A program made the position numbers and the translations under genes. The notes beneath the pieces are model-generated. The model worked only from the letters and a program-made list of their open reading frames with translations, had not been told where the DNA came from and did not search any database. This document shows positions 13,763 through 56,757 of a stretch of 64,000 nt of DNA, piece by piece (within the stretch, counting starts at the first letter, position 1; the number at the start of each line of letters is the position of its first letter). The DNA comes from an uncultured bacterium (lineage in GTDB: Bacteria; JAJVIF01; JAPKYR01), in assembly GCA_965369865.1 (NCBI GenBank), contig CBDURU010000001.1, positions 48,406 through 112,405 of the forward strand, read 5' to 3'.

Positions 13763-13802
13763 GGGGACACCTGCTTTTCGACAGGCGAAAAGAGGTGTCC
13801 CC
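13763..13802. other. Long near-perfect stem-loop (10 bp + 7 bp arms, 5-nt loop); a possible terminator of the hydrogenase operon or part of a repeated intergenic element
   Basis: GGGGACACCT-g-CTTTTCG-acagg-CGAAAAG-AGGTGTCCCC was read directly. It lies 117 nt downstream of the minus-strand protease gene. No clear U-run follows on either strand. Confidence 0.4.
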
Positions 13803-13918
13803 GATATTAGATTTACGTCGGCAAGCACGTTCGACCCGAAGATTTTCAAGGCGTGCGGGATGGAGATGTCTTACTGAGCAGGTTTGCGATCAATGAGTGT
13901 TCGTGTATTTCTCTGACC

Positions 13919-33663: not shown

Positions 33664-34365
33664 ATGACCGAACAAGAATCCCAGACTGTCTGTATCATCC
33701 CAGCCTTTGATGAGGCTCCTACAGTCGCGGATATCGCCAGGATCGCGGTCGAACATCCTTTAATCGGCCGCGTTTTTGTAATCGATGACGGCTCAACTGA
33801 TGATACATCTGAAAAAGCACGGGCGGTCGATGGAGTTAACCTCATCGTTCACAATGTAAACGGCGGTAAAGGAAAGGCCATGCGCACCGGCCTGGATGCG
33901 ACTGATGAACCAATCGTCCTATTTCTTGACGCGGACCTGGTCGGTTTGAAACCTCACCATATCACCGACCTTATGAAACCTGTCCTCGATGGTGATGCGG
34001 ACATGTCCGTCGGGCTTTTCAGAGGCGGACGCCTTCACACCGATCTCGCGCATATGATCACCCCCTCACTCTCCGGCCAGAGGACAGTCCAAAGATCGGT
34101 GATCGAAAATATGGACATGGACTCGGTTGGATTCGCGATTGAAAGGGCACTGACAGAACTCTGGGAAACAGGAAAAATCAAAGTTAAAGATGTCATCTGG
34201 AAAGGCGTCACACATCGAACCAAAGAGGAGAAACGCGGGTACATCGAAGGCGTCAGGCAGCGAATAGGAATGTTTTCGGAGATACTTAAATTCGAAGGGA
34301 AACGCATCGGGAGACGCCTGAAAAACGGCAAAACCACTCACTCTGAACGGTCGGACAAACCGTAA
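33664..34365 (+). CDS. Family-2 glycosyltransferase
   Basis: It has CIIPAFDEAPTV, VIDDGSTDDT and FLDADL (DxD), the GT-A/GT2 signatures. Confidence 0.8.
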   Translation: MTEQESQTVCIIPAFDEAPTVADIARIAVEHPLIGRVFVIDDGSTDDTSEKARAVDGVNLIVHNVNGGKGKAMRTGLDATDEPIVLFLDADLVGLKPHHITDLMKPVLDGDADMSVGLFRGGRLHTDLAHMITPSLSGQRTVQRSVIENMDMDSVGFAIERALTELWETGKIKVKDVIWKGVTHRTKEEKRGYIEGVRQRIGMFSEILKFEGKRIGRRLKNGKTTHSERSDKP

Positions 34366-34582
34366 AATGCGCATCCTGCAAATGACCCTTGTAAAATGTG
34401 CATTCTGCGCATGATTCAAAATTCCTCCCGGTTAACCTCGATACTCATTTTCTTCCAGTCACCTTTCCTGAAAAGTCAGAAATAATTCCAGCAAAATGGT
34501 GAGCACATACCATGCTCGTTTTTAGAGCGACGGCTGGATTATCTAGCATCGAAGTAAGGTTGGTATGCTGTAAATTCATGAG

Positions 34583-37552
34583 TTATTTGGCTAAGGCCTT
34601 GGAAACCCTATCCAATTTTCTATGGACGAGTAAAGTATCCTCCGATTTTTCTCCCAGAGCTTTTTTAAGTGTTTTGTAAGCCTTCTGTAAATTGCTTTTC
34701 GCCTTAAGTAATTTTCCTTGCACTTCGTATAAGCTTCCTCTATGGCTAAGGCAAATACCTAAGTGTGCTTTTTCTTTGATGTCAGGAGATGCAAGAATTC
34801 GAAGAGCTTGGTCATTATAATTTAGAGACTCTTCGAACTCTCCAACTTTCATTAGACTAGCAGCTAAATTGTCAAACCTAATTCCAACGTATTCATGCTC
34901 AGGACCATAGTTATGAACTTCGACCTCAAGGGCATGTCGATATAAGTGGGAAGCAATATGAAAATCTTCTTGGATTAAATGCAATTTTGCCAAATCAGAA
35001 TAAAGAACACTCATAACATCATTATCTTTCTCGCCTTTCGAAATAAATTCATTAATTTTGCAGTTGATTTTATTCATTAGGTTTATAGTCTCCAAATTGC
35101 TTTCAAGAGTAGATGCATATTGTATGTTTTGCTTTCCAAATTTTTTAACTAGATCATTAGCTTTCAAAAATTGATCTAAAGCTTTATCATAATCACCTTC
35201 TGCGCGATAAACGCATCCTAGATTATTGAAATGCAAAATTAGTTGAGATCTATTTATTGTATTCTCTTGTTGTTCTGAATCCGCTTTTATTGCTTTAGTA
35301 AGTAAAATTTTTGCAGCCCTTAACATTCCAGCATGCTTGTAAGCAACACTTAAGTTTGACAGTTTAAATGATATGTTTTGCATGTTTAGAAAACCAGCTT
35401 GTACGAGGAGCCTTAGAGATTTCTTGTGAAGTTTGATGGCCCCGGCTGGATTTCCCTGTTGTCGAATGACAACCGCTAAATCAGATAGACTACCAATTGT
35501 TATTTCATGAGAAGCACCTAGGTGTTTTCTAGATAAATGATAAGATCTGGCAAAGGTTTTTTTCGCCAAATGTAGCTCGTCGGACTCCAGGTAACATAAA
35601 CCGATGTTTTTTAAGCAGATAATGTATTCATGGTCTTCCTCCCCTTTTTGTTGCCTATAAATCTCAAGGGCTTTCTGAGATAACACTAATGCTTCATTAA
35701 ATCGCTCTAGTTTTCTTAACACCCCAGCAAGATTATCCGCAGATGTAGCATATTCAACTTGGTCACATCCACGGAAATGTTGCGAAATGTTAAGTGCATT
35801 TTCAAAGCAATCCAAAGCAGAATTAAGTTTAAAGGATTGGTCAAGTAATAATCCTGCAAAATTTAATAATCTTACATTGATTGCTTCAGCCAGTTTAATA
35901 TGAGAAAGATGTTTTGAAATAGATAATACGTGCGGTAAAATTCTGATTTTAGATTTATGATTGAGAGTCGTATCTGCAATGAAATTATCCAGAATCTTCG
36001 CAGATGCCCATGCATATGTAAGAAATGTTTCTTTATCGAGTTGACCTAGAACAACGTCTTGTAGAAGTCTATGGATTGAGAGATTATCAGAGTTTTCCAG
36101 TTGGAATCGATCCACCAAGGATAAAGCACGCAAATTCTTAATAAGTGTATTTAATAAAATATCATCTTGAGCCTGTTCTTCTAAAAACGAAGGTAAATAT
36201 TCTTTTCCTTTTTTAATAATTGCTAGTGGGATGTCTTCAGGGGCAAAGAAAGCAAGTAAAAACAAGAGACTAGTACTTCCATCATCAAGAGATTTAATTG
36301 ATGATAACCAAGTTGTGGCAACGGTTGAATGGTAATCGTCAACTTGCCTAACCTGCTCCAATATTTTTGTACGGTTTACGATCAAGATATCATATAATTT
36401 CCCTAGTGATATTCCAGAGAGTTTTGCATATGCAACTGACTGCTCTAAAGCTAGTGGGAGATCTTTTAATTCATCAGCTATTTTATCTGCAGCTTTAAGA
36501 TCATCAGAACCGGTTCTTTGCACAATGAATCTGACAGACTCCTCCCGTTTCCACGGAGTAACAAGAATCTCGTGACCGATGTGGCTCCAGTCTGGACTCA
36601 GGGATGTGATTATCACATTCCCACGTAAGCCCTGAGGAATGAATTCTTTTATTGACTGCTGATCAGGTGCATTATCATAGATAATGAGCCAGCTTTTATG
36701 TTGCCTTAGCCAATCGAGCACACTTTTCATAATTTCATAGTGTGGTAGATTAAAATCAATCATAAATTTGATATTTGGGAAGTATTCCTTGCTAAGGTTC
36801 TGGGCTAGATCGATAAATTGAACAGGAATGCTAGCTGGGAATTCGGAATTGATCCACCATACAATTTTATATTCGTGAGCGTAGTGATAGGCGTACTCAA
36901 GAGCGATTTGCGTCTTACCAATGCCGGCTCCTGAATGGAGTACCTGGGTGACTGCAGCAGGAGTTCCAGATGTTAGACCTTCATGCAGGTGATGGAGAAT
37001 TTCATCTCTACCAGTGAAACTAAGATTGCGATTATAAGGCACATGCCAGATTTTTGGTACTGCAAAAGGATCTGAGGGTTCATCAGTTTCAGGTATAGCT
37101 GTACTGAATGGGCAAACTGGTTCATCATCCGGTTTTTTAATACCTTTAACCGTTGATTCAACCTTTAGTGCAAGCTCAGTTCTGTTAATGGTCCCAACAA
37201 GATCACTGTATATAATTGTTCTGAGCAATCCTTTGGGCTTATAGTCGGCAACCCTAAAAGGCATTATAATTGATTTGCCAGTTTCATTTTGCTTATCATT
37301 GAAAGCATTCCACTCATCCATACACTGTTCAGATTGTTGATAATCAGGGGAAAGAAGCGCGATCATCCGATCGGCCTTTTCTACGGCATCTCCCATATGC
37401 TTTCTGAAAGATTGACCATGCGCAAAGTCATATTTATCAAAGATTGTCTCACGATCACATTTTTTCCGAACAAACCATTCTATCCATTTGGCTTTAGGTG
37501 TGTCTTTGTGGCTATAACTTATAAAAATAATTTCCTTTCCATTTTTAACCAT
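34583..37552 (-). CDS. TIR - NB-ARC (STAND P-loop NTPase) - TPR protein; candidate antiviral/abortive-infection sensor
   Basis: The TIR part is IIFISYSHKD...LLSPDYQQSEQCMDEW (the conserved Glu context). Walker A is GAGIGKTQIA (nt ~36911-36931) and Walker B is WLIIYDNA. The NB-ARC GLPL-like motif is LKDLPLALEQ. About 500 aa of TPR repeats follow. The gene is much more AT-rich than both flanks. Confidence 0.85.
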   Translation of the reverse strand: MVKNGKEIIFISYSHKDTPKAKWIEWFVRKKCDRETIFDKYDFAHGQSFRKHMGDAVEKADRMIALLSPDYQQSEQCMDEWNAFNDKQNETGKSIIMPFRVADYKPKGLLRTIIYSDLVGTINRTELALKVESTVKGIKKPDDEPVCPFSTAIPETDEPSDPFAVPKIWHVPYNRNLSFTGRDEILHHLHEGLTSGTPAAVTQVLHSGAGIGKTQIALEYAYHYAHEYKIVWWINSEFPASIPVQFIDLAQNLSKEYFPNIKFMIDFNLPHYEIMKSVLDWLRQHKSWLIIYDNAPDQQSIKEFIPQGLRGNVIITSLSPDWSHIGHEILVTPWKREESVRFIVQRTGSDDLKAADKIADELKDLPLALEQSVAYAKLSGISLGKLYDILIVNRTKILEQVRQVDDYHSTVATTWLSSIKSLDDGSTSLLFLLAFFAPEDIPLAIIKKGKEYLPSFLEEQAQDDILLNTLIKNLRALSLVDRFQLENSDNLSIHRLLQDVVLGQLDKETFLTYAWASAKILDNFIADTTLNHKSKIRILPHVLSISKHLSHIKLAEAINVRLLNFAGLLLDQSFKLNSALDCFENALNISQHFRGCDQVEYATSADNLAGVLRKLERFNEALVLSQKALEIYRQQKGEEDHEYIICLKNIGLCYLESDELHLAKKTFARSYHLSRKHLGASHEITIGSLSDLAVVIRQQGNPAGAIKLHKKSLRLLVQAGFLNMQNISFKLSNLSVAYKHAGMLRAAKILLTKAIKADSEQQENTINRSQLILHFNNLGCVYRAEGDYDKALDQFLKANDLVKKFGKQNIQYASTLESNLETINLMNKINCKINEFISKGEKDNDVMSVLYSDLAKLHLIQEDFHIASHLYRHALEVEVHNYGPEHEYVGIRFDNLAASLMKVGEFEESLNYNDQALRILASPDIKEKAHLGICLSHRGSLYEVQGKLLKAKSNLQKAYKTLKKALGEKSEDTLLVHRKLDRVSKALAK

Positions 37553-37578
37553 AAAAACACCAATATCTGTACTGAACT

Positions 37579-38985
37579 CTAACCCCTTGCGGCCATCTCT
37601 ACTTCCGCGTATTCGGCGGTGAAATGCCTTAATACCGGGGGTTCGTAGGTCAGGCGTATGCCTTTCAATTCGTCTCGTTTTTCGTACACGGTTTTGATAG
37701 TATCAATAACATAATCCATTTGGGTTTGCGTGTAGACACGACGCGGGATCGCCATCCGGACGAATTCGAAACGTGCGGTACGTTCCTTGCCGGTCTCCGG
37801 GTCGCGTCCCGCGAGGATTGTCCCGATCTCGCACACTCGCACTCCACCCTCAATGTAAACCGCGTTCTGAAAAGCAATGCCCGGATATAATTTCCGGGGC
37901 ATATCGGGCATTGCTTTTGTAATGTTTAAATAAACAGCGTGGCCGCCGGTCGGCCAGAAAATCGGTACTCCCGCCTTACGGAGCCTGGCTCCAAGGTAAC
38001 GGGTTTGCCCGATACGCCATGTCAGGTAGTGCTCATCCATTCCTTCCCGTAAGCCGACCGCAAGCGCCGCGATATCCCGTCCGGCCTGGCCGCCGTAAGT
38101 CGGGAAACCCTCGAACAACGTTGCCATGGTCGCGAGTTTCCGGTAAAGCTCCTCATCGCGGCAGACGATGAGTCCGCCGATATTAACAAGCCCGTCCTTC
38201 TTGCTCGACATCATCGCCCCGTCGACATAACTGAACATCTCTTTGACGATTTCCGGAATTGTTTTTTCCGCGTAGCCTTCCTCGCGGGTTTTTATAAAGT
38301 ATGCGTTTTCGGAAAACCGGGCCGCGTCGAAAAACAAGGGGATTTCGTAGCCCCCGCAAACCTTGCTGATTTCCCGTATGCAATTCATGCTGACAGGTTG
38401 GCCGGCAGCGGTGTTCGCGGTGATTGTCAGGATTACGAGCGGTACATTGTCGATCCCGGCATCCTCAATCGCCCTTGTTAATTTGTCAGGATCGATATCA
38501 CCCTTGAACGGGCTGTCACTTTCGGAATCGAGCGCTTCATCGCATATGCAGTCCACCCCGACCCCTCCCGCCCACTGGATGTGTCCGGATGTCGTATCGA
38601 AATGCCCGTTTCCGGGCACGACCGGCCTTTTATCGGATTCGAGGAGTACTGTCAGCACAAGATGCTCGGCGCCGCGACCCTGGTGGGCGGGAAGCACATA
38701 CGGCATGCCGAAAATTTCCTTCGCCGTACGGTTAAGTTCCTCCCATGATTTCGAGCTTGCGTAAGATTCATCCCCCCGCATGATCGCTGCCCACTGCTCA
38801 TCGCTCATCGCTCCGGTGCCGGAGTCGGTGAGGAGATCGATCGTAATTTTTCTGGCGGGAACATTAAAAATGTTGCCTTTCGCGTCCCGCCACAGGATTT
38901 TTTCACGTTCCTCGCGCTTAGTGATCGGGACTTTCTCGACTGCCTTTATTTTAAACGGCTCGAACGGGTATGAAATCTCCGGCAT
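37579..38985 (-). CDS. Beta-eliminating lyase: tryptophanase / tyrosine phenol-lyase family (PLP-dependent)
   Basis: It aligns along its length with TnaA/TPL (DLLTDSGTGAMSD, HQGRGAE, PLP-lysine context MSSKKDGLVNIGG, RLTIPRRVYT-like MAIPRRVYT). I cannot separate Trp from Tyr specificity by eye. Confidence 0.85.
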   Translation of the reverse strand: MPEISYPFEPFKIKAVEKVPITKREEREKILWRDAKGNIFNVPARKITIDLLTDSGTGAMSDEQWAAIMRGDESYASSKSWEELNRTAKEIFGMPYVLPAHQGRGAEHLVLTVLLESDKRPVVPGNGHFDTTSGHIQWAGGVGVDCICDEALDSESDSPFKGDIDPDKLTRAIEDAGIDNVPLVILTITANTAAGQPVSMNCIREISKVCGGYEIPLFFDAARFSENAYFIKTREEGYAEKTIPEIVKEMFSYVDGAMMSSKKDGLVNIGGLIVCRDEELYRKLATMATLFEGFPTYGGQAGRDIAALAVGLREGMDEHYLTWRIGQTRYLGARLRKAGVPIFWPTGGHAVYLNITKAMPDMPRKLYPGIAFQNAVYIEGGVRVCEIGTILAGRDPETGKERTARFEFVRMAIPRRVYTQTQMDYVIDTIKTVYEKRDELKGIRLTYEPPVLRHFTAEYAEVEMAARG

Positions 38986-41842: not shown

Positions 41843-44137
41843 TTGGTAGAAAATTATGTCTCACTCGGCTTGTCAAGGCCATTCTTTAGGGTTTTAATTA
41901 ATTTACGTACATGTTATTATTTCATTCGTACAAGAACAGGGAATCCGGCTTCACATGGAGCCAACCCGCAGGGAGTCACAGAGATAGAAAAAGCAGGCGA
42001 AAATTCTACGATTAATCCGTTTTTTGTTGAAGAGCCGAGGATGGTATACGGTCCTGAGGCCGGCGACTGGCTGGAGCAATTCTGGCACCCTGAGCGACCC
42101 AATTATTATCTGCAGTTGTCGCAACCCCCGGATTATTACAGGGCACAGGAATGTTCAGTTTTTCTGCTGGTCCATGTAAAAGACATCTGGCCTCCAGGGG
42201 TGCTTATGGTCGGGGACAGGGGTATCCAACTGGATAGAATTATCGATGGTGAGTTGATCGTTGAGCCGTATCCCGGAGTGGCGGAAGGCGCTGGGATCTG
42301 GATTGATAATGAGCCCTGGGCCGAGGATGAATGGGACTCATGGGCGGACCCTAACATGGGATATCGCATCGCCGAGGACGCTAAACCCAGGGGGGATGAG
42401 TTTATAATAATATTTGAGATGGACGCGTTACTGGCTGATCCCGGCCTTGATGAGGTTAAGGTGCGTGTTACCGACTTCCACGAAAATTGGACAAGGACGG
42501 ATAATGTGCTGGACCAGCAGGGCGGTGAATATGTTGTACGCGACTTGATGTTCAGGGATAATAACAGGTATCCGGATGACAATGATCCCTGTTATTACCC
42601 TAACAATCAACCTCCGTACAGGAGAGTTGAATGCGACGGTTATGTAATGCCAAGGCCGGGCGGGACAACAGCCCTTGATGTGGTTGCGATCGTGTCATCT
42701 TATCATCCACCCGACAGTATCCCGGTCGATATTAGCGCACCTACTGACGAACCAGTGACTGGTGGTGGAGCGGAACAAGTAACTGCTCTATTGTACCGCC
42801 TGAATAAAAGCGCGTGTCCGAGTGAATGGCTGGAAATTTGGAGTGACAGCACGTGTGCCGGTGCTATTTACAGTTCATGTGTTGAAATATACTGCCGTTA
42901 TGCTACCGGGCGGGTATTCTATAATTGCCCTGAGGATCCACCGATGGTGGCTGCTACGGATAATGGGTACACCACAGTGTCATCACCTGCAAATCCTGTT
43001 GATTATTCGGAAACGCCGTTCTTGTATGTCAGCAGCAGCGATCACCTGATCGACGACCCAGGCGGGGATTATAAGGACTGGGCAAGTGCTATGGCGAGTG
43101 GTGTACAGATTAGTGGAAGTCCAATTCAGGATGCGAATATTTGGCACCATGCAGGTATGATTTTATCTGCTAGTTACGGAAATGGATTCCGGGGTTTATA
43201 TGAAACTGAACTCGAGCAAAGTCCTGAATGGACTTTTGGGGGTGGGTGCAGTATAGAGAACCAGTATTACGCAAACTATAAAGACAACGTATTAACTTAT
43301 GGGTTTGAATTGGTTAAAGCTGAATGTGATGGATATGAAGCGCACTATGCAATTCAAAGCCAGGCAGATGTAATGTTTGTTCTTGCGCACGGTGAAGTGT
43401 TCGGTAGGCCTGCAGGAAGGAACATGTATGGTGAATGGGAGGAATCAAATACCCATGCAATTCCTCCAGGTACAGATATACTTGGGAATCCATGGGTCGA
43501 TCAACCGTATTTATTCTATTTCCCGGAAAGCCCGTTACCACCTTATGACGAAACTGGTAATAAGAATGATATTATTGTCTGGGATGATTGGCCTGGTTAT
43601 CTTGGGCCAAATCCAGATTCGGATTGGCTTGTCTTGATGGCGTGCCTTCAGCTTGGTGATCCCAGTACTCTTGCCCAATGTAATGCCTGGCTTTCATATC
43701 GCCACCTTATCCAAAATTCGAGTATCAGATCCGTATTGGGCCATAGGGATTTACATAATGGTGGTGCATATTCTGTAGGGATTGGTAATAATCCATTGCA
43801 TCCAAATCTTTTTACTGGGACTTGGGAGGATGCTTTTATTGTTATGTTCTGCGGTTATCTGGAGTCAGGAGACTATCAACCTCACCCAACGGAACGGTGG
43901 TTGAATTACGATCCATCAGTTGAATATGGGGCAATGTGTTACATGGAAGCTGCATGGTTGTATTATTATTACTATGAAACAATGTGCGGCCCGTGGGAGG
44001 AAGATCATGTTTTCCAGGATACTACTACAATTATTACTGCAAGTGCAGTTGATTTGAATTATCGATACATTTTAGAAAAAGTACGTACTGCCGGTATACC
44101 AGAAGATGATTGGCCGGTAAGAATACATGTACTTTGA
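41843..44137 (+). CDS. A1: uncharacterised protein, the full-length member of the 'A' family (shared N-module, unique middle, C-terminal His/Cys caspase-fold-like module)
   Basis: It is a 764-aa ORF. The real start may be the ATG at 42041 (MVYGPEAGDW). The N-module at 42127-42513 is shared with A2/A3. The putative dyad is VLAHGE (His codon 43388-43390) and LVLMACLQLG (Cys codon 43643-43645). No signal peptide is evident. Confidence 0.7.
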   Translation: MVENYVSLGLSRPFFRVLINLRTCYYFIRTRTGNPASHGANPQGVTEIEKAGENSTINPFFVEEPRMVYGPEAGDWLEQFWHPERPNYYLQLSQPPDYYRAQECSVFLLVHVKDIWPPGVLMVGDRGIQLDRIIDGELIVEPYPGVAEGAGIWIDNEPWAEDEWDSWADPNMGYRIAEDAKPRGDEFIIIFEMDALLADPGLDEVKVRVTDFHENWTRTDNVLDQQGGEYVVRDLMFRDNNRYPDDNDPCYYPNNQPPYRRVECDGYVMPRPGGTTALDVVAIVSSYHPPDSIPVDISAPTDEPVTGGGAEQVTALLYRLNKSACPSEWLEIWSDSTCAGAIYSSCVEIYCRYATGRVFYNCPEDPPMVAATDNGYTTVSSPANPVDYSETPFLYVSSSDHLIDDPGGDYKDWASAMASGVQISGSPIQDANIWHHAGMILSASYGNGFRGLYETELEQSPEWTFGGGCSIENQYYANYKDNVLTYGFELVKAECDGYEAHYAIQSQADVMFVLAHGEVFGRPAGRNMYGEWEESNTHAIPPGTDILGNPWVDQPYLFYFPESPLPPYDETGNKNDIIVWDDWPGYLGPNPDSDWLVLMACLQLGDPSTLAQCNAWLSYRHLIQNSSIRSVLGHRDLHNGGAYSVGIGNNPLHPNLFTGTWEDAFIVMFCGYLESGDYQPHPTERWLNYDPSVEYGAMCYMEAAWLYYYYYETMCGPWEEDHVFQDTTTIITASAVDLNYRYILEKVRTAGIPEDDWPVRIHVL
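42127..42513 (+). repeat. Shared N-module of the A family, copy in A1
   Basis: 42181-42496 matches 45448-45763 with no mismatch that I can find by eye (316 nt). Flanking identity is slightly lower. Confidence 0.9.
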
Positions 44138-44158
44138 GGACCTGAGAGGAGTATAATC

Positions 44159-45316
44159 ATGAATATTATTAAAATATACAAACTATTAGTAATTAATGTT
44201 TATACATTATTATTCCTTACTTTAACTTCAACAGCTCATTCCACAACAATACTAAGTGAAATAAGTACGGAGAATATGCAACCGTATAGAATTATCCCGG
44301 GAACTATTTCCAATGAATTCTGGATAGTAGGCCAGGCAAAAGGATTAGGATTGCTTGTGGAAGATCAACAGGGAGCCTGGTCATTTACACAGTATCCCAT
44401 AGGCTCAGTATGGGATGCAGTGGGACCTGATAATAATGGCAGGATTTGGTGTTCAAGTTTTGTAACGGGAATTGGAACAGCCATACAAGTTTTTAATTGC
44501 AATACAAAGGATGTAATCCAAAATGTTAATATTGGCCCTGATTATGTAACGACAGGAATTACACTTTCTATTAATGAGGACTATGTGTATCTACTGGGTT
44601 GGGATTGGCCAAGATTTGGTGAACCGGGAAGTTGGGTATCCAGTTTCGGTCACCCAAATGCAGGCATTGTATGGGAAATTAATATATCTTCATTTGAAGT
44701 TTCCCCAGATATTGGTGTTGTTGGAGTATTTCCGTATACAATATATTACGCTGGAAGCCAAGAAACAGATAAACTCCTAGTTTACACTCTCGCACGGGAT
44801 GATGTAGGTCGAGAAGGTGGGGAATGTATTGACATCCTGGCAGTGGATAGAAGTTTCCCACGCTTAGGAGGGCTCCCGGCATGCTTTACAAATGAATATC
44901 TATACTGCAATGACCTAGTAAAATGGTCAGATGAAGATCCGCTTATAGCACTGTGTAATCGTTCGGTAGATAATATGGGGGATAGTGAAGATTTCTCCGA
45001 TGGATTATGGATCATCGATACAGAATTAGAAGAAGTTGTTCAGACATACCGTATATATGACATCGCGGACAGGATCAGGGGAGTTCAGCATCTTTGTGTG
45101 AGTGAAGTCCGTCCGGGGATCGCATATATGAGTCTTGGTTTTGGTGGTCTTGACGCAGAGACCGCGGTTTTTGATATGGCTACCGGACAGGTTATCGAGC
45201 ACATTCAAACCGGTCTTGTTTTCACTCCGGAATTTATTTATGAATTACCAGATGGCAGACTTATTGTCACTGGCGGCAGGACAAAAAATATAGTCATCAT
45301 CGACCCGTTACATTGA
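44159..45316 (+). CDS. B1: exported YVTN-like beta-propeller protein (divergent member of the 'B' family)
   Basis: It starts 21 nt after the A1 stop, with GAGAGGAG upstream. It has the N-terminal signal/anchor LLVINVYTLLFLTLTSTAHS and blade-like repeats ending ...LPDGRLIVTGGRTKNIVIIDP. Confidence 0.7.
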   Translation: MNIIKIYKLLVINVYTLLFLTLTSTAHSTTILSEISTENMQPYRIIPGTISNEFWIVGQAKGLGLLVEDQQGAWSFTQYPIGSVWDAVGPDNNGRIWCSSFVTGIGTAIQVFNCNTKDVIQNVNIGPDYVTTGITLSINEDYVYLLGWDWPRFGEPGSWVSSFGHPNAGIVWEINISSFEVSPDIGVVGVFPYTIYYAGSQETDKLLVYTLARDDVGREGGECIDILAVDRSFPRLGGLPACFTNEYLYCNDLVKWSDEDPLIALCNRSVDNMGDSEDFSDGLWIIDTELEEVVQTYRIYDIADRIRGVQHLCVSEVRPGIAYMSLGFGGLDAETAVFDMATGQVIEHIQTGLVFTPEFIYELPDGRLIVTGGRTKNIVIIDPLH

Positions 45317-45382
45317 TTCGTTGCAGTCCCTGAATGGCTCGAGCAGTTCTGGCATCCTGAGTTACCCAATTATTATCTGCAG

Positions 45383-47131
45383 TTGACGCAGCACCCGGAT
45401 TATTACAGGGCACAGGATTGTTCAGTTTTTCTGCTGGTCCATGCAAAAGACATCTGGCCTCCAGGGGTGCTTATGGTCGGGGACAGGGGTATCCAACTGG
45501 ATAGAATTATCGATGGTGAGTTGATCGTTGAGCCGTATCCCGGAGTGGCGGAAGGCGCTGGGATCTGGATTGATAATGAGCCCTGGGCCGAGGATGAATG
45601 GGACTCATGGGCGGACCCTAACATGGGATATCGCATCGCCGAGGACGCTAAACCCAGGGGGGATGAGTTTATAATAATATTTGAGATGGACGCGTTACTG
45701 GCTGATCCCGGCCTTGATGAGGTTAAGGTGCGTGTTACCGACTTCCACGAAAATTGGACAAGGTCGGATAATGTGCTTGAGGACATTGATGGCCTTTATA
45801 CTGTAACTAAAGTGGGGATAATCGAACAAAATTACCAGGGAACGACTGTTCTGGCGGACTTCTGCGGCGTGCCGGTATGTAATAGAGTAGCCGGTGAATA
45901 CACTCTTGATTATGTAGCTCAGGTAGTAACTTCGGATTACATTGAACCGCCTGACTTCTTATGGAGCGTTATAAATTCTCCACTGCATGAGGGCAGTGTC
46001 GGCTTAGTTGAAATAAATGTTCCCATTTATCGTCTGGATCCTGAATTGGACAGGTATGAAATATACAATGAACTGTTTCCCCCTCATGGCTATCAATGCA
46101 ATGTTCATTATTATTCTCGCGGGCTGGAATTATTAATCCCTCCCGGCGAAGTCGCCCCGGTTGTCATTGATGACTGGCGAGAATCGGTTCAGCCAATGCA
46201 CGAGGAAGACTATGGTACATGTCCGCATCTGTATTTGAGCGATAGGGACCATTTACTTGGTATCGAAGGTGATCCTAATAATGATCAATGGAAAGACTAT
46301 TCAATAGCAATGGCAATTGACTCAGATATCCGTGATTTCTATGACAAAGCTCTTAATTCAATGTATTTTGGTAGCTCTGAAAGAGGGATATTTTATGGCT
46401 GCAATGTTTTGATAGGTGATAAGGACAGCTATGCTGAAGATGTACTCGACAGCGGTGTTGAAAGGCTTAAAATCGATGTTGAAGAAAAGGAGGCGGATAT
46501 TGGTATTCAAAGTCGAGGTGACGCATATTTTGTAATTGGGCATAGTTATGAAACAGGTAATCCTCCCGGGCAAGTACAAGGGATTTGGGAGTTTATACCT
46601 TCGGCAAACCATAACGCCCCTGGCGATTGGAAGTATGTTGTTTCTAGAGATGATTTTGCAACCAGTGGAGATCTCGATCGGGAAGTAAACTGGTTGATTT
46701 CTCAAGCTTGTCATTTACTTGGTCCATCTTCGTATCAATATTGGCAGGCTCTAATACCGAATCAGTTGGATGCAATTTGTGGTTTTCGTTGCGCCAATAT
46801 CAGGGAACTTCTGCCGGAATTTAGCAAGCTTGAAGAAGAAGGACCAAGCGCTTTCTTCGGAGGTTTTTCAACCAGGTTAACCAGTAATGAGGGGGCTCAT
46901 GAAAGTTATTGGAAGTACGATAATCAAATCCCTAATGATCGCGCCATTATTGCGTGGATGGAGAACGCATGCGAATGGGCACGCATATTGAAATCAGAAG
47001 TTCGTAACCGTGAATACATGATGGAGAATGCTGCCGCAATTGATGAACTATACATTTATGAAATCGAATGGACTTCAAGCCCTTATGATTGGCCGCTCTT
47101 TGGTGAAAGCTTATACATTGTCAGATACTAG
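45383..47131 (+). CDS. A2: 'A'-family paralog lacking its own canonical 5' end
   Basis: Homology to A1 begins at ~45329, upstream of any in-frame start. The first candidates are TTG at 45383 and ATG at 45473. The putative dyad is FVIGHS (His 46541-46543) and LISQACHLLG (Cys 46709-46711). Confidence 0.65.
   Translation: MTQHPDYYRAQDCSVFLLVHAKDIWPPGVLMVGDRGIQLDRIIDGELIVEPYPGVAEGAGIWIDNEPWAEDEWDSWADPNMGYRIAEDAKPRGDEFIIIFEMDALLADPGLDEVKVRVTDFHENWTRSDNVLEDIDGLYTVTKVGIIEQNYQGTTVLADFCGVPVCNRVAGEYTLDYVAQVVTSDYIEPPDFLWSVINSPLHEGSVGLVEINVPIYRLDPELDRYEIYNELFPPHGYQCNVHYYSRGLELLIPPGEVAPVVIDDWRESVQPMHEEDYGTCPHLYLSDRDHLLGIEGDPNNDQWKDYSIAMAIDSDIRDFYDKALNSMYFGSSERGIFYGCNVLIGDKDSYAEDVLDSGVERLKIDVEEKEADIGIQSRGDAYFVIGHSYETGNPPGQVQGIWEFIPSANHNAPGDWKYVVSRDDFATSGDLDREVNWLISQACHLLGPSSYQYWQALIPNQLDAICGFRCANIRELLPEFSKLEEEGPSAFFGGFSTRLTSNEGAHESYWKYDNQIPNDRAIIAWMENACEWARILKSEVRNREYMMENAAAIDELYIYEIEWTSSPYDWPLFGESLYIVRY
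45394..45780 (+). repeat. Shared N-module of the A family, copy in A2
   Basis: See the A1 copy. The offset is a constant 3267 nt with no indels. Confidence 0.9.
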
Positions 47132-47147
47132 TCCTTTGAGGTGAACT

Positions 47148-48320
47148 ATGAATCAAAGATTAAAAAAAGCAGTCAAACTGGGCCTTGTGCTTATGGCTGG
47201 CATACTGGGTATTTGCGCTCTTGTTTGGGCTGCAAGTCAGTCGTTCTCGTATGGACAACCGGGCGCAGTGCAAGCTTTGTTGAATGATGACGGTAGTCGA
47301 CTGTATGTTTCGTACTACAGAGACAACAAAGTTGTAGAGATAGATACGGAAACGATGCAACAGGTTCGTCAATTTCAAATCGAATGGCCGGCCTATATGG
47401 AGTTATCTGAGGATGAGTTATATTTGTATGCAATAAGCAGGGCTGTCACAGCCAGTATTAAAAGGATGCGCTTGTCTGACGGCAACATTGATCAGATAAT
47501 TCTGGAAGGTGATGTTATTTCGCTATCGTATGATCCTGACGGTAATCGTTTGTGGGTTGTTCACCGAACATGGCCAATGGATGGAGATGTAATGAATGGT
47601 CCAGCCCCCCCGCCATCGTATGCTGGAATACTGACGGAAATTGACACAACAGATTTTGCAATTTCACAAAATCTTGCTATTGAATCATATCCCATTTCGG
47701 TGTGGTATTCACAGTATTCCGATAAAGTTTATGTAATGCATGGCTTGGTCAGGACTGAACCAGCCGGTTTTGAGACGGAAGGGGGAGGTTTTGTCACAAC
47801 GGGAGTCGCGTTATTGTGCAACCCAATTACCATTTATGGCTTGGATCAGGATAGATTGTACTGTATTGGTGAGGTGATGGGCGGGTTCTACAATGATGAT
47901 GTAATGCCTGCACAATTGGATAAATGGGACGACGATGGGAGATATATGGCAGTTCCATCTTCATCATATGGAATCCCATCGTTTTCCATGCGAGTTATTG
48001 ACACATACGATGACTCAGTTGCATTTGATTTGATATTCCCGACTTATTTTGATTCTCCATTGCCGGTTAATTTCGTAAAGAAAGTTACCGGAAATACTGA
48101 TTTCTGGGTTATGGTAAGTGGAGATATACCGTATGAAAATTTACCGGAAGGAAGTTGGGTGGTTGTACGGGTTAATACCGATACGCTCGAGCATGAAATT
48201 TATACTATAGATCAAGTAAATGCGAGATTATTCGGTAATTTTGCTGTGTCGCCTGACGGCAATACTTTATATTTAACTGTTCCACACACCGGCGAAATCA
48301 TCGTCTGGTCGCCGGATTGA
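47148..48320 (+). CDS. B2: exported YVTN-like beta-propeller protein
   Basis: It starts 16 nt after the A2 stop, with GAGGTG upstream. It has the signal/anchor LGLVLMAGILGICALVWAA and YVTN-like blades (DGSRLYVSYYRDNKVVEIDTETMQ..., SPDGNTLYLTVPHTGEIIVWSPD). Confidence 0.75.
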   Translation: MNQRLKKAVKLGLVLMAGILGICALVWAASQSFSYGQPGAVQALLNDDGSRLYVSYYRDNKVVEIDTETMQQVRQFQIEWPAYMELSEDELYLYAISRAVTASIKRMRLSDGNIDQIILEGDVISLSYDPDGNRLWVVHRTWPMDGDVMNGPAPPPSYAGILTEIDTTDFAISQNLAIESYPISVWYSQYSDKVYVMHGLVRTEPAGFETEGGGFVTTGVALLCNPITIYGLDQDRLYCIGEVMGGFYNDDVMPAQLDKWDDDGRYMAVPSSSYGIPSFSMRVIDTYDDSVAFDLIFPTYFDSPLPVNFVKKVTGNTDFWVMVSGDIPYENLPEGSWVVVRVNTDTLEHEIYTIDQVNARLFGNFAVSPDGNTLYLTVPHTGEIIVWSPD

Positions 48321-50002
48321 TTGTTTTATCACTGGTGCTTATGGTCGGGGACAGGGGTATCCAACTGGATAGAATTATCGATGGCGAGTTGATCATTGAG
48401 CCATATCCCGGAGTGGCGGAAGGCGCTGGGATCTGGATTGATAATGAGCCTTGGGCCGAGGATGAATGGGACTCATGGGCGGACCCTCACATGGAATATC
48501 GCATCGCCGAGGACGCTAAACCCAGGGGGGATGAGTTTATTATAATTATTGCTATGGACGCTTTACTTTCTGATCCCGGTCTTGAGGAGGTTAAGGTGCG
48601 TGTTACCGACTTCCACGAAAATTGGACAAGGACGGATAATTTGCTGGAGGACATTGATGGCCTTTATACTGTAACTGAAGTGGGGATAATCGAACAAAAT
48701 TACCAGGGAACGACTGTTCTGGCGGACTTCTGCAGCGTGCCTGTATGTGATAGAGTAGCTGGGATATACACTCTTGATTATGTAGCTCAGGTTGTAACAT
48801 CGGATTACATTGAACCACCTGATTTCTTATGGAGCGTTATAAATTCTCCAACGCATGAGGGCAGTGCTGGTTTAGCGGAAATAAATGTACCAATTTATCG
48901 TCTGGACCCTGAATTGGACAGGTATGAAATATACAATGAACTCTTTCCCCCTCATGGCTATCAATGCAATGTTCATTATTATTCTCGCGGGTTGGAATTA
49001 TTAATTCCTCCCGGTGAAGTCGCCCCGGTTGTCATTGATTTCTGGCGGTATTCTGTTCAACCAATGCACGAGGAAGACTATGATACCTGTCCGCATCTGT
49101 ATTTGAGCGATAGGGACCATTTAATTGGTCAGGAGGGTGATTTTGATGAAGATAGTTGGAAAGATTTCTCTATTGCCGTAGCAAACGATACAGAACTATG
49201 GCTCACATATAAACACGTAATTGACTACGCATGGTTTGGTTCAAGTGAGCGAGGTGGATTCCTCCCTATTTCCTGTGATCCGGACAAAGGTTTTAAACAG
49301 GATTATACAGTTGATGTTCTTGATTGCGGTGTTGAAAGAGTCCAGATTGATGTAGAGACTAAAACAGCTGATATTGGGATCCAAAGCAGAGGGGATGCAT
49401 ATTTCATATTTAGCCATGGTTGGCCACCTCCAATGATTGGGTATGAGCAATTAACACAGATTACCAGTCTAAGTCCTTTCCCTAATCCTGATCCGAATCT
49501 TCCTGATCGAATACCATTATCTGATTGGAAATATGTAAGTGGTCTTGCAACAGAGGTTGACTGGTTAATTTGCTCTGCATGCTTCCTTCTAAACGACGCA
49601 TCTTATCAAATATGGCAGCAATTACTTATCCCCAATTCGGTTGATGGGATCTGTGGCTTTAAGGATTTCAATTTTCGTAACATGTTGCCATTACATAGCT
49701 ATCCTAATCATCCAGGGCAAGAATTTTATCAAGCGTTTTCTGAGCGTCTTACAGACTATGAAGGCCCACATCATTATTTGTGGGGGTGTCAACCATCTTC
49801 AGTTCCAGCAGTTACTGCTTGGATGGAGAATGCATGTGTTTGGGCGATGCATATTTCAGCTGGATTTCATCCCGGGCAAGCCTGGCATGGTCTTATGTCC
49901 TGCGCGGCAGTTGATGGTGAATACCGTTATGTCCTGCGTACTCGTCGTCCCGATTGTTGGTGGGAACCGGATCCCTCATTTGAAATAAATGTCTTGCATT
50001 GA
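48317..50002 (+). CDS. A3: 'A'-family paralog, further 5'-truncated
   Basis: Homology to A1/A2 begins only at 48335 (..VLMVGDRGIQL). Candidate starts are TTG at 48317, which overlaps the B2 stop, or ATG at 48341. The putative dyad is FIFSHG (His 49415-49417) and LICSACFLL (Cys 49580-49582). Confidence 0.65.
   Translation: MIVLSLVLMVGDRGIQLDRIIDGELIIEPYPGVAEGAGIWIDNEPWAEDEWDSWADPHMEYRIAEDAKPRGDEFIIIIAMDALLSDPGLEEVKVRVTDFHENWTRTDNLLEDIDGLYTVTEVGIIEQNYQGTTVLADFCSVPVCDRVAGIYTLDYVAQVVTSDYIEPPDFLWSVINSPTHEGSAGLAEINVPIYRLDPELDRYEIYNELFPPHGYQCNVHYYSRGLELLIPPGEVAPVVIDFWRYSVQPMHEEDYDTCPHLYLSDRDHLIGQEGDFDEDSWKDFSIAVANDTELWLTYKHVIDYAWFGSSERGGFLPISCDPDKGFKQDYTVDVLDCGVERVQIDVETKTADIGIQSRGDAYFIFSHGWPPPMIGYEQLTQITSLSPFPNPDPNLPDRIPLSDWKYVSGLATEVDWLICSACFLLNDASYQIWQQLLIPNSVDGICGFKDFNFRNMLPLHSYPNHPGQEFYQAFSERLTDYEGPHHYLWGCQPSSVPAVTAWMENACVWAMHISAGFHPGQAWHGLMSCAAVDGEYRYVLRTRRPDCWWEPDPSFEINVLH
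48335..48650 (+). repeat. Shared N-module of the A family, 5'-truncated copy in A3
   Basis: It aligns with 42200-42515 at a constant offset of 6135 nt. I count roughly 15-20 mismatches by eye. Confidence 0.85.
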
Positions 50003-50016
50003 TTTTGGAGATCACA

Positions 50017-51162
50017 ATGAAAACAAAAACATTCATAATCTTAGGTATAGTAATCACTGCAATTGTTGTTGGCGGAATTCTGTATGAAATAACGATGAAT
50101 CCTGGAATAATCGCAAGCAGTAACGGCTATTATTACGGTCTTTCTAATCCTGTTACAGCAGCGATCAACTCAAACGGCGACCACCTGTATGTCTCATTTC
50201 CTTCCCATAACAAGGTTTTGGAAATAGATATCCCAAGCATGCAGGAACTCAGGCGATTTGATATAGATGATGCAGGATACCTTCATCTGGATCAGAGTGA
50301 AAATTTACTCTACTGTATTTCTTCCGGGTATCCCAGCTACCTAAACAGGATCAATTTATCTTCGGGACAAACTGAGCGGATTCAAATAACTGCGCTGGCT
50401 ACTGACTTCTGTTTCCATCCGGATGGACAAACGATCTGGGTGATAAGTCAAACGTGGCCCGGGGAAGGAGAATGGTATGTGCCTTCTGAAGCATACAAGC
50501 ATCCAGAGAGTGGTATGATTACTGAAGTGGATGTTCAGAATTTTGAGATTATTCAATCTGCTACAATAAAGCCGTTACCGGTTTGTATTATGTACTCATC
50601 ATATACTGAGATGTTGTATATCTGGCATGCTTATACTTCAGTTGAAAGCGAACCAGGACAAAATTACATTACTCGTAATGGTAATGTTATTTACGAAACT
50701 GACCCGTCTAGGTTGAATCAAGGTCGTCACTTTATTACAGGTCCTGAAATAGGCCTTCCGGGAGGTCCAAGGGTTGAATTATGGTCAGATGACGGAAGGT
50801 ACCTTGCAGTTCCCAGTCCCGCAATAGGCGAGCCGCCACACTCATTAATGGTATTTGACCTTGAGTCATGGGATTATGCAAGTGAAATTTCAGTTTTAAT
50901 GGGCAATGATCTACCGTTTGGCACTCGTTTTTTACATGTTGTACCGAACCAAAATATCATCTGGGCAACCGGTTTCGGAGGATTCTCAGAGAATCCTCTT
51001 GATAGACCTGTTATCAGAATTAATAGAGTAACAGAAGAAATTGAAGTTTTTCCTGTACATGGAGTTCCTCGATGGGGTGATTTCACTGTGTCTCCTGATG
51101 GCTCAACGCTTTACTTGACCAGCCCTAACACTAATGAAATCATCGTCTGGTCGCCGGATTGA
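50017..51162 (+). CDS. B3: exported YVTN-like beta-propeller protein
   Basis: ATG at 50017 with GGAG 6 nt upstream (the track start is TTG at 49999). It has the anchor FIILGIVITAIVVGGIL and ends ...SPDGSTLYLTSPNTNEIIVWSPD. Confidence 0.75.
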   Translation: MKTKTFIILGIVITAIVVGGILYEITMNPGIIASSNGYYYGLSNPVTAAINSNGDHLYVSFPSHNKVLEIDIPSMQELRRFDIDDAGYLHLDQSENLLYCISSGYPSYLNRINLSSGQTERIQITALATDFCFHPDGQTIWVISQTWPGEGEWYVPSEAYKHPESGMITEVDVQNFEIIQSATIKPLPVCIMYSSYTEMLYIWHAYTSVESEPGQNYITRNGNVIYETDPSRLNQGRHFITGPEIGLPGGPRVELWSDDGRYLAVPSPAIGEPPHSLMVFDLESWDYASEISVLMGNDLPFGTRFLHVVPNQNIIWATGFGGFSENPLDRPVIRINRVTEEIEVFPVHGVPRWGDFTVSPDGSTLYLTSPNTNEIIVWSPD

Positions 51163-51212
51163 TCGTCACAGGCGGCGAGAGCGAAAAAATCCTCGTCATC
51201 GATCCGACGTAG
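51162..51212 (+). pseudogene. Relic of an ancestral last beta-strand of the B family, located after the B3 stop
   Basis: It translates as IVTGGESEKILVIDPT*. Compare the B1 C-terminus IVTGGRTKNIVIIDPLH*. Confidence 0.45.
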
Positions 51213-51296
51213 TGATATAATGGTTTCTCTAATACAGCGACAAGCACGTTCGGCTGGAAGCCAGGCATTGCTTGTCACCGACATCCAGGTCACAAG

Positions 51297-52463
51297 ATGC
51301 GAAAACATGTACGTCTGATAGTTATCGTTTTATCCGCTATGATTTGCATAACAGGCATTTATGCAATCGTTAAAGCCACACGAGAATTTTATTCCTATGG
51401 GCAGCAGGGGGCAACGGACATCGAAATTACAAATAATGGTGAACTGCTATATGTTACATATTTTGAAGATAACGCCGTCGTGGAGATCGATGCAAATACA
51501 ATGTTAGAGGTTAGAAGATTTTCGGTTCCCATGCCAACGACAATTTATCTTGATAGCGACGAAGAATATATTTACGCAAGTAGCGATACCTGGCCGGGTG
51601 GAGTATATAGAATACAATTGATCGATGGTCAATCTTCTTCCTTAACGCTGGAAGGCGAAATATATGATTTGGCAATAGATAAACAAAATAACAGATTATG
51701 GGCTGTTCATTTAATTTGGCCTCAGTTTGATGAGTTATTTAGTGAGACAGAGGCATATCTCCATCCGAATACTGGGAGGTTGACTGAGATAGACCTGGAT
51801 AATTTCCAGGTAACCAGAGAGCTTGAAATAGAGCCATTGCCTACAGCGGTATGGTATTCACAATATAGTAATAAAGTATATGTTGTTCATCATTTACGTA
51901 GATTTGAGCCATATGACCCGTCATCTTACGGGTCAATGGAGAGTATGAAATATTTCGGTAATCCCATTACCATTTATGGATTGGATCAGGAAAATTTACA
52001 CAAAATTGGGGAGAATTTTGTCGGTCATCATGATAAGTCTTTAATTATACCATACCATATTGGTAATTGGGACGATAGTGGTCGTTATCTCGTTGTTCCA
52101 AGCCCCATATCTGGCCGTCCCGAATTTTCTTTGGAAGTTATTGATACAGTTGATGATTCAATTGAAAATTATATTTCATTTCCTGGTTATCCTCCAGGTG
52201 ATCTTATGACAACAAAATATATTCAAAAGGTACCAAATATTGATGTATTATGGTCTACAATTTTATTCGGTCGTCCTGATCCTGAAATTTATGAAGGAAA
52301 TAGATTCATTGCTCGGGTAAATACAGTAACATTAGAATATGAGATATTCACGATTGATAATGTTAATTATAGCTTCGGAGATTTTGCTGTGTCACCTGAC
52401 GGCAATACTTTATATTTAACTGTTCCCAATACCGGCGAAATCATCGTCTGGTCTCCGGATTAA
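51297..52463 (+). CDS. B4: exported YVTN-like beta-propeller protein (no A gene in front)
   Basis: It has the anchor LIVIVLSAMICITGIYAIV. It is about 45 percent identical by eye to B2, and the last ~90 nt are nearly identical to B2. Confidence 0.75.
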   Translation: MRKHVRLIVIVLSAMICITGIYAIVKATREFYSYGQQGATDIEITNNGELLYVTYFEDNAVVEIDANTMLEVRRFSVPMPTTIYLDSDEEYIYASSDTWPGGVYRIQLIDGQSSSLTLEGEIYDLAIDKQNNRLWAVHLIWPQFDELFSETEAYLHPNTGRLTEIDLDNFQVTRELEIEPLPTAVWYSQYSNKVYVVHHLRRFEPYDPSSYGSMESMKYFGNPITIYGLDQENLHKIGENFVGHHDKSLIIPYHIGNWDDSGRYLVVPSPISGRPEFSLEVIDTVDDSIENYISFPGYPPGDLMTTKYIQKVPNIDVLWSTILFGRPDPEIYEGNRFIARVNTVTLEYEIFTIDNVNYSFGDFAVSPDGNTLYLTVPNTGEIIVWSPD

Positions 52464-52545
52464 TTGTTTTATCACAGGGGCTTATGGAACCCATCGGCAG
52501 ACCCCTCTCCGGTGCCCCACACATCCCCTTGTTAAATTAAAAATG

Positions 52546-52835
52546 GACCCATATCACATAGATATGGGCCTACCGATTAACAAAAATTATATCCTGAAAA
52601 AAATTAACAATCCATCCGTAGAACTGCACGGCAGTGCGTCTCAAAGAAACTCCCGATGAATCACGGGTTGAAACGCGCGATAAAAATATCGTCAAGTCCG
52701 GCCGAGGTCAGCAATGTCTCGTTGGATTCGTAAAGCCCGAATATGGCTGATTCATTGAAATAGCCTGCCACAACCATCGAATCGTCCGACAGTACTTCGA
52801 TCCCATATCCTTCATCCCTGAAAGATCCGCCCGCC
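52546..52835. repeat. Direct repeat, copy 1 (terminator hairpin plus the 3' end of an SBBP gene)
   Basis: GACCCATATCACATAGATATGGGCCTACCGATTAACAAAA...CACGGCAGTGCGTCTCAA...GTACTTCGATCCC is shared with 56768-57035. Copy 1 has a ~25-nt insertion after ATATCC. Confidence 0.85.
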
Positions 52836-52838
52836 AGG
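52661..52838 (-). pseudogene. 3'-terminal fragment (~59 codons) of an SBBP lipoprotein gene, a duplicate of the 3' end of 56860..59304
   Basis: The reverse-strand translation is ...DEGYGIEVLSDDSMVVAGYFNESAIFGLYESNETLLTSAGLDDIFIARFNP*. It has no upstream body and is nearly identical at the nt level to 56860-57035. Confidence 0.8.
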
Positions 52839-52840
52839 AT

Positions 52841-53008
52841 ATGTATGAAGATAACAAGAGCAACTGGGCTATTGAAGTCTTGAAATGAGGTGTAGAGTTA
52901 GTTGAAGTCGAGGTTGAAGATAAAACGGCTGATATAGGTTTCCAAAGCAGGGGAGATGTTTACTTCCTGATTGCACATGGTTCTACGATAGAGGTTGAAG
53001 GAAATTAG
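52841..53008 (+). pseudogene. Relic of a fourth 'A'-family gene (region around the putative catalytic His) with an in-frame TGA
   Basis: It translates as ..YEDNKSNWAIEVLK*GVELVEVEVEDKTADIGFQSRGDVYFLIAHGSTIEVEGN*. Compare A3 ..VLDCGVERVQIDVETKTADIGIQSRGDAYFIFSHG. The TGA sits where A3 has Cys and A2 has Ser. Confidence 0.7.
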
Positions 53009-53202
53009 GTTGTAGATTTGGTCTTCGAAGCTTGCCTGGTTGTCGGGTTTCGAATGCATGTATCCACCCTCTCGCCTTTCCCGTTCGGTTTATACTGGAC
53101 ATTATTTTCATTTCTCGCCTGAATGCAGGTGCCCATTGTATTTTGCGCCGGTTGCATGCTATTCTATATATTCATTCACGTTTCATTTTGGAGGTTTTTG
53201 GT

Positions 53203-56601: not shown

Positions 56602-56757
56602 GTCTGAATCCTGTCATTAATTCTTTTTTATTGAGGCTCGATCTCGATAACATAGCCGCTTTCTCCCAAGAGCTGTAACCCGGGGAATGCCTTACAGCGA
56701 CTGAATCGGTAAACCTACATCTATCTGATGTGGATGCCATGGCATCGGAAATTCTGA

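Follow-up and report, generated by a model that had tools for sequence, protein, structure and literature searches.

Bacterial proteins that combine a TIR domain, an AP-ATPase nucleotide-binding module and tetratricopeptide repeats (TPRs) in a single chain have been described by comparative genomics (PMC7159879; bioRxiv 10.1101/2020.01.06.895854; PMC9806590), and in actinobacteria a TIR-AP-ATPase-TPR gene was reported downstream of FxSxx peptide-processing systems (Kaur et al. 2020; PMC7159879). The similarity between bacterial proteins and the plant TIR-NBARC-TPR proteins (TNPs) is reported to be confined to the nucleotide-binding domain; TIR NADase activity and cell death depend on a conserved glutamate, and the cell death caused by the plant protein ZmTNP-IIa depends on both the TIR glutamate and the P-loop (PMC9806590). 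AP-ATPases figure among the 589 prokaryotic STAND clades of a 2026 survey, the majority of which have TPR-like sensors; STAND sensors of this kind bind core proteins of phages and set off oligomerization of the effector (PMC13581612). We analyzed a 64-kb stretch of DNA from contig CBDURU010000001.1 (the window), in which one gene, referred to here as the TIR gene, encodes a 989-residue protein of this architecture. The host is a marine-sediment Planctomycetota bacterium, and the related genomes retrieved with the protein encoded by the neighboring gene tnaA belong to a Planctomycetota lineage of metagenome-assembled genomes (MAGs). By analogy with the plant and bacterial systems discussed below, we on balance favor a role for the protein as an NLR-like conflict sensor that would assemble its TIR NADase upon ligand binding.

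Domain architecture and overall fold

The TIR gene is an uninterrupted open reading frame (ORF P0001; 34583..37552, minus strand; 2970 nt, ATG start, TAA stop), and its product has the three parts proposed in the initial annotation, a TIR domain, an NB-ARC-type nucleotide-binding oligomerization domain (NOD) and TPRs, on which Pfam, a NOD profile and Foldseek agree. The TIR domain (residues ~7–136; 37145..37534, minus strand) was delimited from Pfam TIR_2 (residues 9–121, E 2e-25), an AlphaFold2 model, Foldseek and alignment. It is followed by the NOD (residues ~171–527; 35972..37042, minus strand), which NCBIfam, profile and model evidence divides into a P-loop nucleotide-binding domain, a helical domain and a winged helix (DUF7779; residues 419–509, E 8e-11). 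The remaining ~450 residues (residues ~528–989; 34586..35971, minus strand) form the presumed sensor and are matched by TPR_12 in seven stretches (E 5e-41), by TPR_10 and TPR_NPHP3 and, weakly, by TPR_MalT. All of the motif strings picked out in the initial annotation were found in the protein: SEQCMDEW, which contains E80, GAGIGKT, WLIIYDNA and LPLAL.

Placement of the NOD in the AP-ATPase/NB-ARC clade rests on the Pfam matches of its homologs, on the NOD profile and on Foldseek. Pfam NB-ARC (PF00931) was matched by 13 of 15 homolog NODs and was not reached at E 0.01 by the NOD of the window protein itself. A search of the PDB with the single NOD sequence likewise returned no match, and a profile of 15 sequences was needed; against solved structures this profile retrieved AfsR (E 5e-13, ~250 residues), NRC1, Roq1, Apaf-1 and ZAR1. 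With the AlphaFold2 model of residues 1–530 (predicted local distance difference test score, pLDDT, 88.8), the top Foldseek matches were CED-4, RPP1, Apaf-1, NRC and ZAR1 (E ~1e-13), with the RPP1 match extending over 560 aligned columns (E 4e-13) and thus over TIR plus NB-ARC, and Avs3 was found at rank 44 (E 2e-6). On its sequence and predicted structure, the protein is assigned to the AP-ATPase/NB-ARC clade as an NLR-like STAND protein made of one chain. The TIR and NB-ARC arrangement is that of the plant TIR-NLRs RPP1 and Roq1 and of the TNPs, which also carry TPRs. The plant TIR-NLRs differ in having leucine-rich-repeat sensors and share only ~15% sequence identity with the protein, and the EDS1-type pathway that acts downstream in plants has no counterpart in bacteria.

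AfsR, a Streptomyces transcription activator with a SARP-NB-ARC-TPR layout (PDB 8k60, 8jke), is the closest solved relative of the NOD and has C-terminal TPRs as well. Together with the weak TPR_MalT match and the location of the TIR gene, which follows tnaA on the same strand after 26 nt, this might point to an AfsR/MalT-type STAND ATPase with a regulatory role in transcription or metabolism, acting for instance on the adjacent tryptophanase gene. We consider such a function extremely unlikely: AfsR regulates transcription through an N-terminal DNA-binding SARP domain, whereas the N-terminus of the protein here is a TIR and no DNA-binding domain is present; the base composition of the TIR gene points to an origin different from that of tnaA; and the TIR gene is not consistently linked to tnaA, which stands without it in the close relative L001 (locus DAOVJF010000028 of a Planctomycetota MAG) and has other neighbors in L002 and L003, the tnaA loci of further relatives. 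The initial annotation had treated placement among regulatory STAND proteins as evidence that would speak against immunity. The best solved relative is indeed a regulator, but the immune reading is not refuted by it, because the output domain of AfsR is a different one (SARP) and plant NLRs belong to this NOD clade as well.

The TIR domain and its conserved glutamate

The model of the TIR domain alone (pLDDT 90.5) matched best the TIR of SPARTA TIR-APAZ/short Ago (PDB 8i87, 8spo), with a template modeling score of 0.73–0.75 and a root-mean-square deviation of 2.6 Å. SPARTA is a NADase that is activated by ligand-driven tetramerization, though its sensor is a guide-RNA-loaded Argonaute and not a STAND/TPR module, and the two TIRs share 14% sequence identity. 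Further matches included AbTir, RPS4, RPP1, TIR-STING and SARM1 as well as the scaffold TIRs of TLR1/6/10, MyD88, TRAM and MAL. E80 (codon 37313–37315, minus strand) aligns with the glutamate of the "SEWCxYE" motif of TLRs. The catalytic-type glutamate claimed in the initial annotation proved to be conserved, being invariant in 56 aligned homologs and present in 134 of 140 diverse representatives, so that the domain has the features of an enzymatic (NADase) TIR, a TIR fold with a conserved glutamate on the αC helix.

It is distinctly unlikely that the domain instead serves as a scaffold without enzymatic activity, or generates a signal for a separate receptor in the manner of Thoeris, in a protein devoted to kin or self/non-self recognition or to developmental cell death and not to phage defense. 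Such a role would be in keeping with the scaffold TIRs that stand among the best fold matches beside the NADase TIR of SPARTA, with the glutamine at position 76, four residues before E80, where 120 of the 137 representatives with a residue at this position have Phe or Tyr, and with the comparative-genomics papers in which such NLR-like proteins are associated with programmed cell death and with bacteria of a multicellular type. The conservation of E80 across the family nonetheless fits an enzyme, the NADase TIRs of SPARTA, AbTir, RPP1, TIR-STING and SARM1 match equally well, and no candidate gene for a receiver of the signal is found in the acquired unit or its flanks.

The nucleotide-binding pocket

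Residues of the NOD were compared position by position with those of its homologs. The conserved elements that are kept include the P-loop lysine K213 and T214 of Walker A (S207–T214; 36911–36934), the Walker B aspartate D293 and N294 (W288–N294; 36671–36691), the GLPL-type motif "LPLALEQ" and the MHD-like H494 (36071–36073), all encoded on the minus strand; K213, D293 and H494 are invariant in the family. Three other positions of the pocket are substituted. The first glycine of the P-loop, position 207, is a serine in this copy (SGAGIGKT, compared with the family motif GLGG[IV]GKT) and a glycine in 146 of 147 representatives, so the P-loop string GAGIGKT given in the initial annotation is present but conceals a substitution at the first glycine of GxxxxGKT. 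The sensor-1 arginine of the "TSR" motif, which corresponds to "TTR" of the plant RNBS-B motif, is replaced by leucine at position 318 (T316-S317-L318; 36599–36607, minus strand; Arg in 137 of 147), and position 386 is leucine where 144 of the 147 have tyrosine. About 70 additional positions deviate from a consensus held by at least 85% of homologs.

The sensor-1 arginine of NB-ARC proteins contacts the γ-phosphate of bound ATP, so a copy with R318L may bind nucleotide yet go through an abnormal cycle. Judged from these residues, the nucleotide cycle is probably altered, with weak or no hydrolysis, and not canonical; the substitutions lower confidence in a canonical ATPase cycle and not in the homology. 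KpAvs8 provides an example of an Avs protein that is active despite degenerate Walker motifs (PMC13581612), and changes in the pocket alone hence do not mean loss of function.

The same substitutions give some substance to the possibility that the acquired gene is decaying or inert, with an open frame and a switch that is broken by G207S, R318L and Y386L and no longer signals. The altered residues lie at positions that nearly all representatives keep, the ~70 other departures from consensus point the same way, the nearest relative among 1.84 billion representatives is just 39% identical over the TIR and NOD, and the gene is dispensable, since L001 does without it. We nevertheless give decay a small chance. 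The 2970-nt frame has remained open at 37% G+C without a stop or frameshift, none of E80, K213, D293, H494 and the GLPL-type motif has been lost, both AlphaFold2 models are confident, identical copies were recovered from two independent samples, and the precedent of Avs proteins that are active although their Walker motifs are degenerate applies here as well.

Foreign composition and presence among relatives

The composition of the TIR gene is foreign to its surroundings. Its G+C content is 0.371 and its G+C at third codon positions (GC3) is 0.299, compared with a G+C of 0.474 for the whole window, 0.543 (GC3 0.629) for tnaA and 0.509 for the gene of the family-2 glycosyltransferase (GT2) on the other side; GC3 of core genes is ~0.55. 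No other 2970-nt interval in the 64 kb has a lower G+C (mean 0.474, standard deviation 0.031). The distance in relative synonymous codon usage to the core genes is 0.624 for the TIR gene and 0.331 ± 0.070 for the reference, ~4 standard deviations away, and comparably deviant codon usage is found elsewhere in the window only in the genes at 41.8–52.5 kb. Calculation over intervals thus bore out the deviation proposed in the initial annotation from hand counts; the counts were right for the gene itself, but tnaA lies at 51–59% in 300-nt intervals, slightly under the 55–60% stated there.

In L001, the flanks on both sides of the TIR gene are 92.7% identical in DNA to the window and collinear with it, with the same gene order (propeller protein, tnaA, GT2, a 231-residue ORF, Wzy-TPR protein and GHMP kinase), and the TIR gene is missing. 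Window positions 34386–37592 are replaced in L001 by 439 nt of unrelated repeat DNA (5118–5556). The blocks aligned by BLAST end at 34385 and 37593, and local alignment extends the shared flank to ~34440, which leaves a variable segment of ~3.16 kb without counterpart in L001 (34441..37596, unstranded; BLAST and local alignment). This segment runs from 142 nt beyond the end of the TIR gene, through the gene and the 26-nt spacer, into tnaA, of which it takes in the final five codons and the stop. An empty site between collinear flanks identifies a true single-gene accessory segment, and the horizontal acquisition considered likely in the initial annotation is supported by both the compositional island and the empty site: the TIR gene was horizontally acquired and is a stand-alone, accessory gene.

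Metagenomes extend this picture. The region is covered at 29x in run X1, the likely source sample, and X2, a cold-seep metagenome of a different study, contains pieces of the TIR gene and both junctions without differences. In metagenome X3, L001-like flank contigs break at 34389 and 37593, and one contig with 98% identity spans the junction of tnaA and the TIR gene; variants of the gene in X3 are 88–98% identical to the window copy. From L001 and the contigs of X2 and X3 it follows that close relatives differ in whether they carry the TIR gene. When the 989-residue protein was looked up by its exact sequence, no recorded contig was matched.

The boundary of the variable segment reaches into the end of the core gene tnaA, where the C-terminal residues (37579–37596) are EMAARG in the window, ELVRNN in L001 and ELARKG in the more distant L002. 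The end seen in L001 is, by this comparison, probably the derived one. The segment boundary is therefore uncertain by ~18 nt, and the idea that the last five tnaA codons changed as part of the insert was set aside. Neither an integrase, a tRNA, a terminal repeat nor a target-site duplication marks the ends of the segment, and a search for direct or inverted repeats bracketing the insert gave nothing convincing.

Family membership and comparison with described systems

An exhaustive HMMER search with residues 1–530 against 1.84 billion representatives of 50%-identity clusters recovered 25,473 relatives at E ≤ 1e-3, of which 3,091 remained at E ≤ 1e-30, mostly with the TIR and NOD layout of the query. 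Collinear relatives number in the hundreds and make up the majority of the 150 best matches, the closest being the 39% identical sequence mentioned above. By sequence, the protein is a lone lineage in a very large family; it is one more example of a catalogued family and is ordinary apart from its altered nucleotide pocket. Homologs occur as single genes between housekeeping genes, by toxin-antitoxin modules, or by a resolvase fragment or an integrase, and these contexts, like the size of the family, are typical of the behavior of conflict genes. In one 5.4-Mb genome, three tandem TIR-NOD-TPR paralogs of 776, 817 and 823 residues were seen (L037, 5628–13016), an NLR-like local expansion. The best plasmid homolog (33% identity) is carried by the conjugative plasmid pPAES01 (L039; NC_011061.1, 1–9346), where it adjoins a restriction endonuclease, a recombinase and a diversity-generating retroelement (Avd and reverse transcriptase).

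The NCBIfam equivalog model NF040586, "FxSxx-COOH system tetratricopeptide repeat protein", matched at 343.1 bits (curated cutoff 300), with its best stretch placing residues 174–509 on profile positions 3–335. The layout of this family, an NB-ARC-type NOD with DUF7779 followed by TPR_12-type repeats, is found here, and the family residues at the first P-loop glycine, the sensor-1 arginine and Tyr386 are all replaced. The fxsT-type bacterial proteins accordingly share with the protein their domain order, NOD, DUF7779 family and type of repeats; they differ in that the protein here is 31–39% identical to any relative, lacks Fxs partners, carries the pocket substitutions and is encoded by a gene of foreign composition in a planctomycete host. 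The score above cutoff, the name fxsT that PGAP gives to the MAG and plasmid homologs, and the actinobacterial gene downstream of FxSxx systems (PMC7159879) would all be expected if the protein were the FxsT component of an FxSxx-COOH/VMAP-type peptide-linked conflict system, one that responds to or acts with a small peptide modified by a radical-SAM enzyme and encoded elsewhere and does not sense phage proteins directly. This is very unlikely for the present copy. The empty site in L001 shows that the TIR gene was acquired alone, and the flanking genes include no FxsA precursor peptide, no FxsB radical-SAM/SPASM maturase and no peptidase. Fxs partner genes are also missing beside five metagenomic homologs and beside the plasmid homolog; pPAES01 does encode a Nif11-type peptide and a radical-SAM maturase ~6 kb from the homolog, and these are not Fxs genes. 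The FxsC N-terminal model, moreover, falls short, with 30 bits where its cutoff is 130. Given the single-gene unit and the absence of Fxs partners from its flanks and from the homolog contexts, the NCBIfam name is an over-extension for this copy.

The Avs proteins (Avs1–5 and Avs7–24; PMC13581612) follow the same single-chain logic of effector, STAND module and TPR-like sensor, and some have TIR or SIR2 NADase heads. The initial annotation had placed the protein with the Avs-type systems, an assignment that holds for the logic and fails as family membership: its NOD falls in another STAND clade, that of AP-ATPase/NB-ARC, the structural match to Avs3 ranks far down the Foldseek list, and PADLOC yielded no Avs or bNACHT match, so that the protein is not a member of those families as now defined. 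The comparison with PADLOC-DB 2.0 gave weak matches, all through the TIR or the TPRs, to bSEFIR (2.6e-7), TPR, SAVED_TIR, PDC-S66 and ThsB (1.3e-3), but no Avs, bNACHT or TIR-NLR system; Avs7–24, defined in 2026, lie outside this comparison. The model Rst_TIR-NLR, for the TIR-NLR protein of an E. coli P4 satellite (Rousset 2022; PMC9122126), was not among the PADLOC matches at E ≤ 0.1, its presence in PADLOC 2.0 being unconfirmed. NACHT was not matched in Pfam or PADLOC.

Proposed function

The mechanism that we propose for an NLR-like conflict sensor is drawn by analogy with the plant TIR-NLR resistosomes of RPP1 and Roq1, with Avs proteins and with SPARTA. At rest, the protein would be a monomer that is held closed by the NOD and its winged-helix domain with bound nucleotide. 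The TPR superhelix would bind a foreign protein, probably one encoded by a phage, whereupon the NOD would open and oligomerize and the TIR domains would pair, forming an NAD+ site around E80. Cleavage of NAD+ would then lead either to its depletion or to an ADP-ribose-type signal, and the infected cell would stop growing (abortive infection).

Several results weigh against this reading. G207S, R318L and Y386L, together with Gln76, may impair the switch or the enzyme, and the NOD clade also includes transcription regulators such as AfsR. Searches for viral counterparts returned no homolog in 50,697 phage records and only seven homolog loci in the 2.9 million viral contigs of IMG/VR. PADLOC 2.0 matched no Avs or bNACHT model and called no defense system, and none of 10 neighboring genes had a match, so defense-island support is missing. 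No RNA runs were found in a search for them, and hence no transcripts. In the literature searched, no experimentally tested member of the bacterial TIR/AP-ATPase/TPR proteins was found.

The bacterial TIR/NB-ARC/TPR family is very large and is the closest prokaryotic counterpart of the plant TIR-NLRs and TNPs, and this copy offers a clean test case, as a single gene with defined insertion boundaries and a natural relative without it. Its natural pocket substitutions could show how much of an ATP cycle such receptors need. It is doubtful, if conceivable, that the protein is a working immune receptor that dispenses with the first P-loop glycine and the sensor-1 arginine and oligomerizes on its ligand without a normal ATP cycle; it would then be the first phage-protective bacterial TIR/AP-ATPase/TPR protein, in the Planctomycetota, where phage defense is almost unstudied.

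Neighboring genes and repeats at the locus

The genes around the TIR gene encode, by Pfam, a GHMP kinase, a Wzy-TPR protein, a product of unknown function, the GT2, tnaA and a β-propeller protein, and neither an integrase nor a partner gene is found among the flanking genes by Pfam or PADLOC, in agreement with the initial annotation. The core gene tnaA (37579..38985, minus strand; Pfam and relatives) encodes a 468-residue tryptophanase-like β-eliminating lyase with 97% amino acid identity in L001. As the initial annotation had read from the sequence, the TIR gene starts 26 nt beyond the tnaA stop on the same strand; no terminator-like site was found between the two genes, and a promoter scan around the TIR gene gave nothing above chance. 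The convergent downstream neighbor is the GT2 gene (33664..34365, plus strand; Pfam and relatives), a core gene that is also present in L001.

At the stop of the GT2 gene, beside the edge of the variable segment, local alignment and motif search revealed an imperfect 29-nt tandem duplication (34362..34419, unstranded) that contains ATGCGCAT and sits in the flank shared with L001, where one copy stands. A motif related to this repeat (ATGCGCAGGATGCGCAT) lies directly downstream of tnaA in L003. Site-specific insertion at flanking motifs was rejected, as the 29-nt motif has just two copies in the whole window, in tandem and on one side of the insert, and does not bracket it.

At the position of the TIR gene after tnaA, L002 carries a 1062-residue ORF (2182–5370) followed by queA. 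The tnaA of L002 is 83% identical to that of the window, and the 1062-residue ORF is unrelated to the Wzy-TPR protein of the window. This ORF has no Pfam match, and the site was not called a defense hotspot.

The DNA that fills the site in L001 (5131–5540) consists of a dispersed short repeat, with two 78-nt copies (98.7% identity) and a triplet of GGGCTAATATA. The repeat recurs in the window at 13763–13871 with ~90–92% identity, and its assembler word depth in metagenomes X1–X4 is in the hundreds to thousands, compared with ~29 for the genome. It looks like a miniature inverted-repeat transposable element (MITE) or a repetitive extragenic palindromic (REP) element.

A second stretch of the window, 41877–56717 (14.8 kb), is also missing from L001, in which positions 1–793 match window 57493–56718 and positions 835–5117 match window 41876–37593. 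This stretch holds the genes of low G+C and deviant codon usage at 44.1–52.5 kb.

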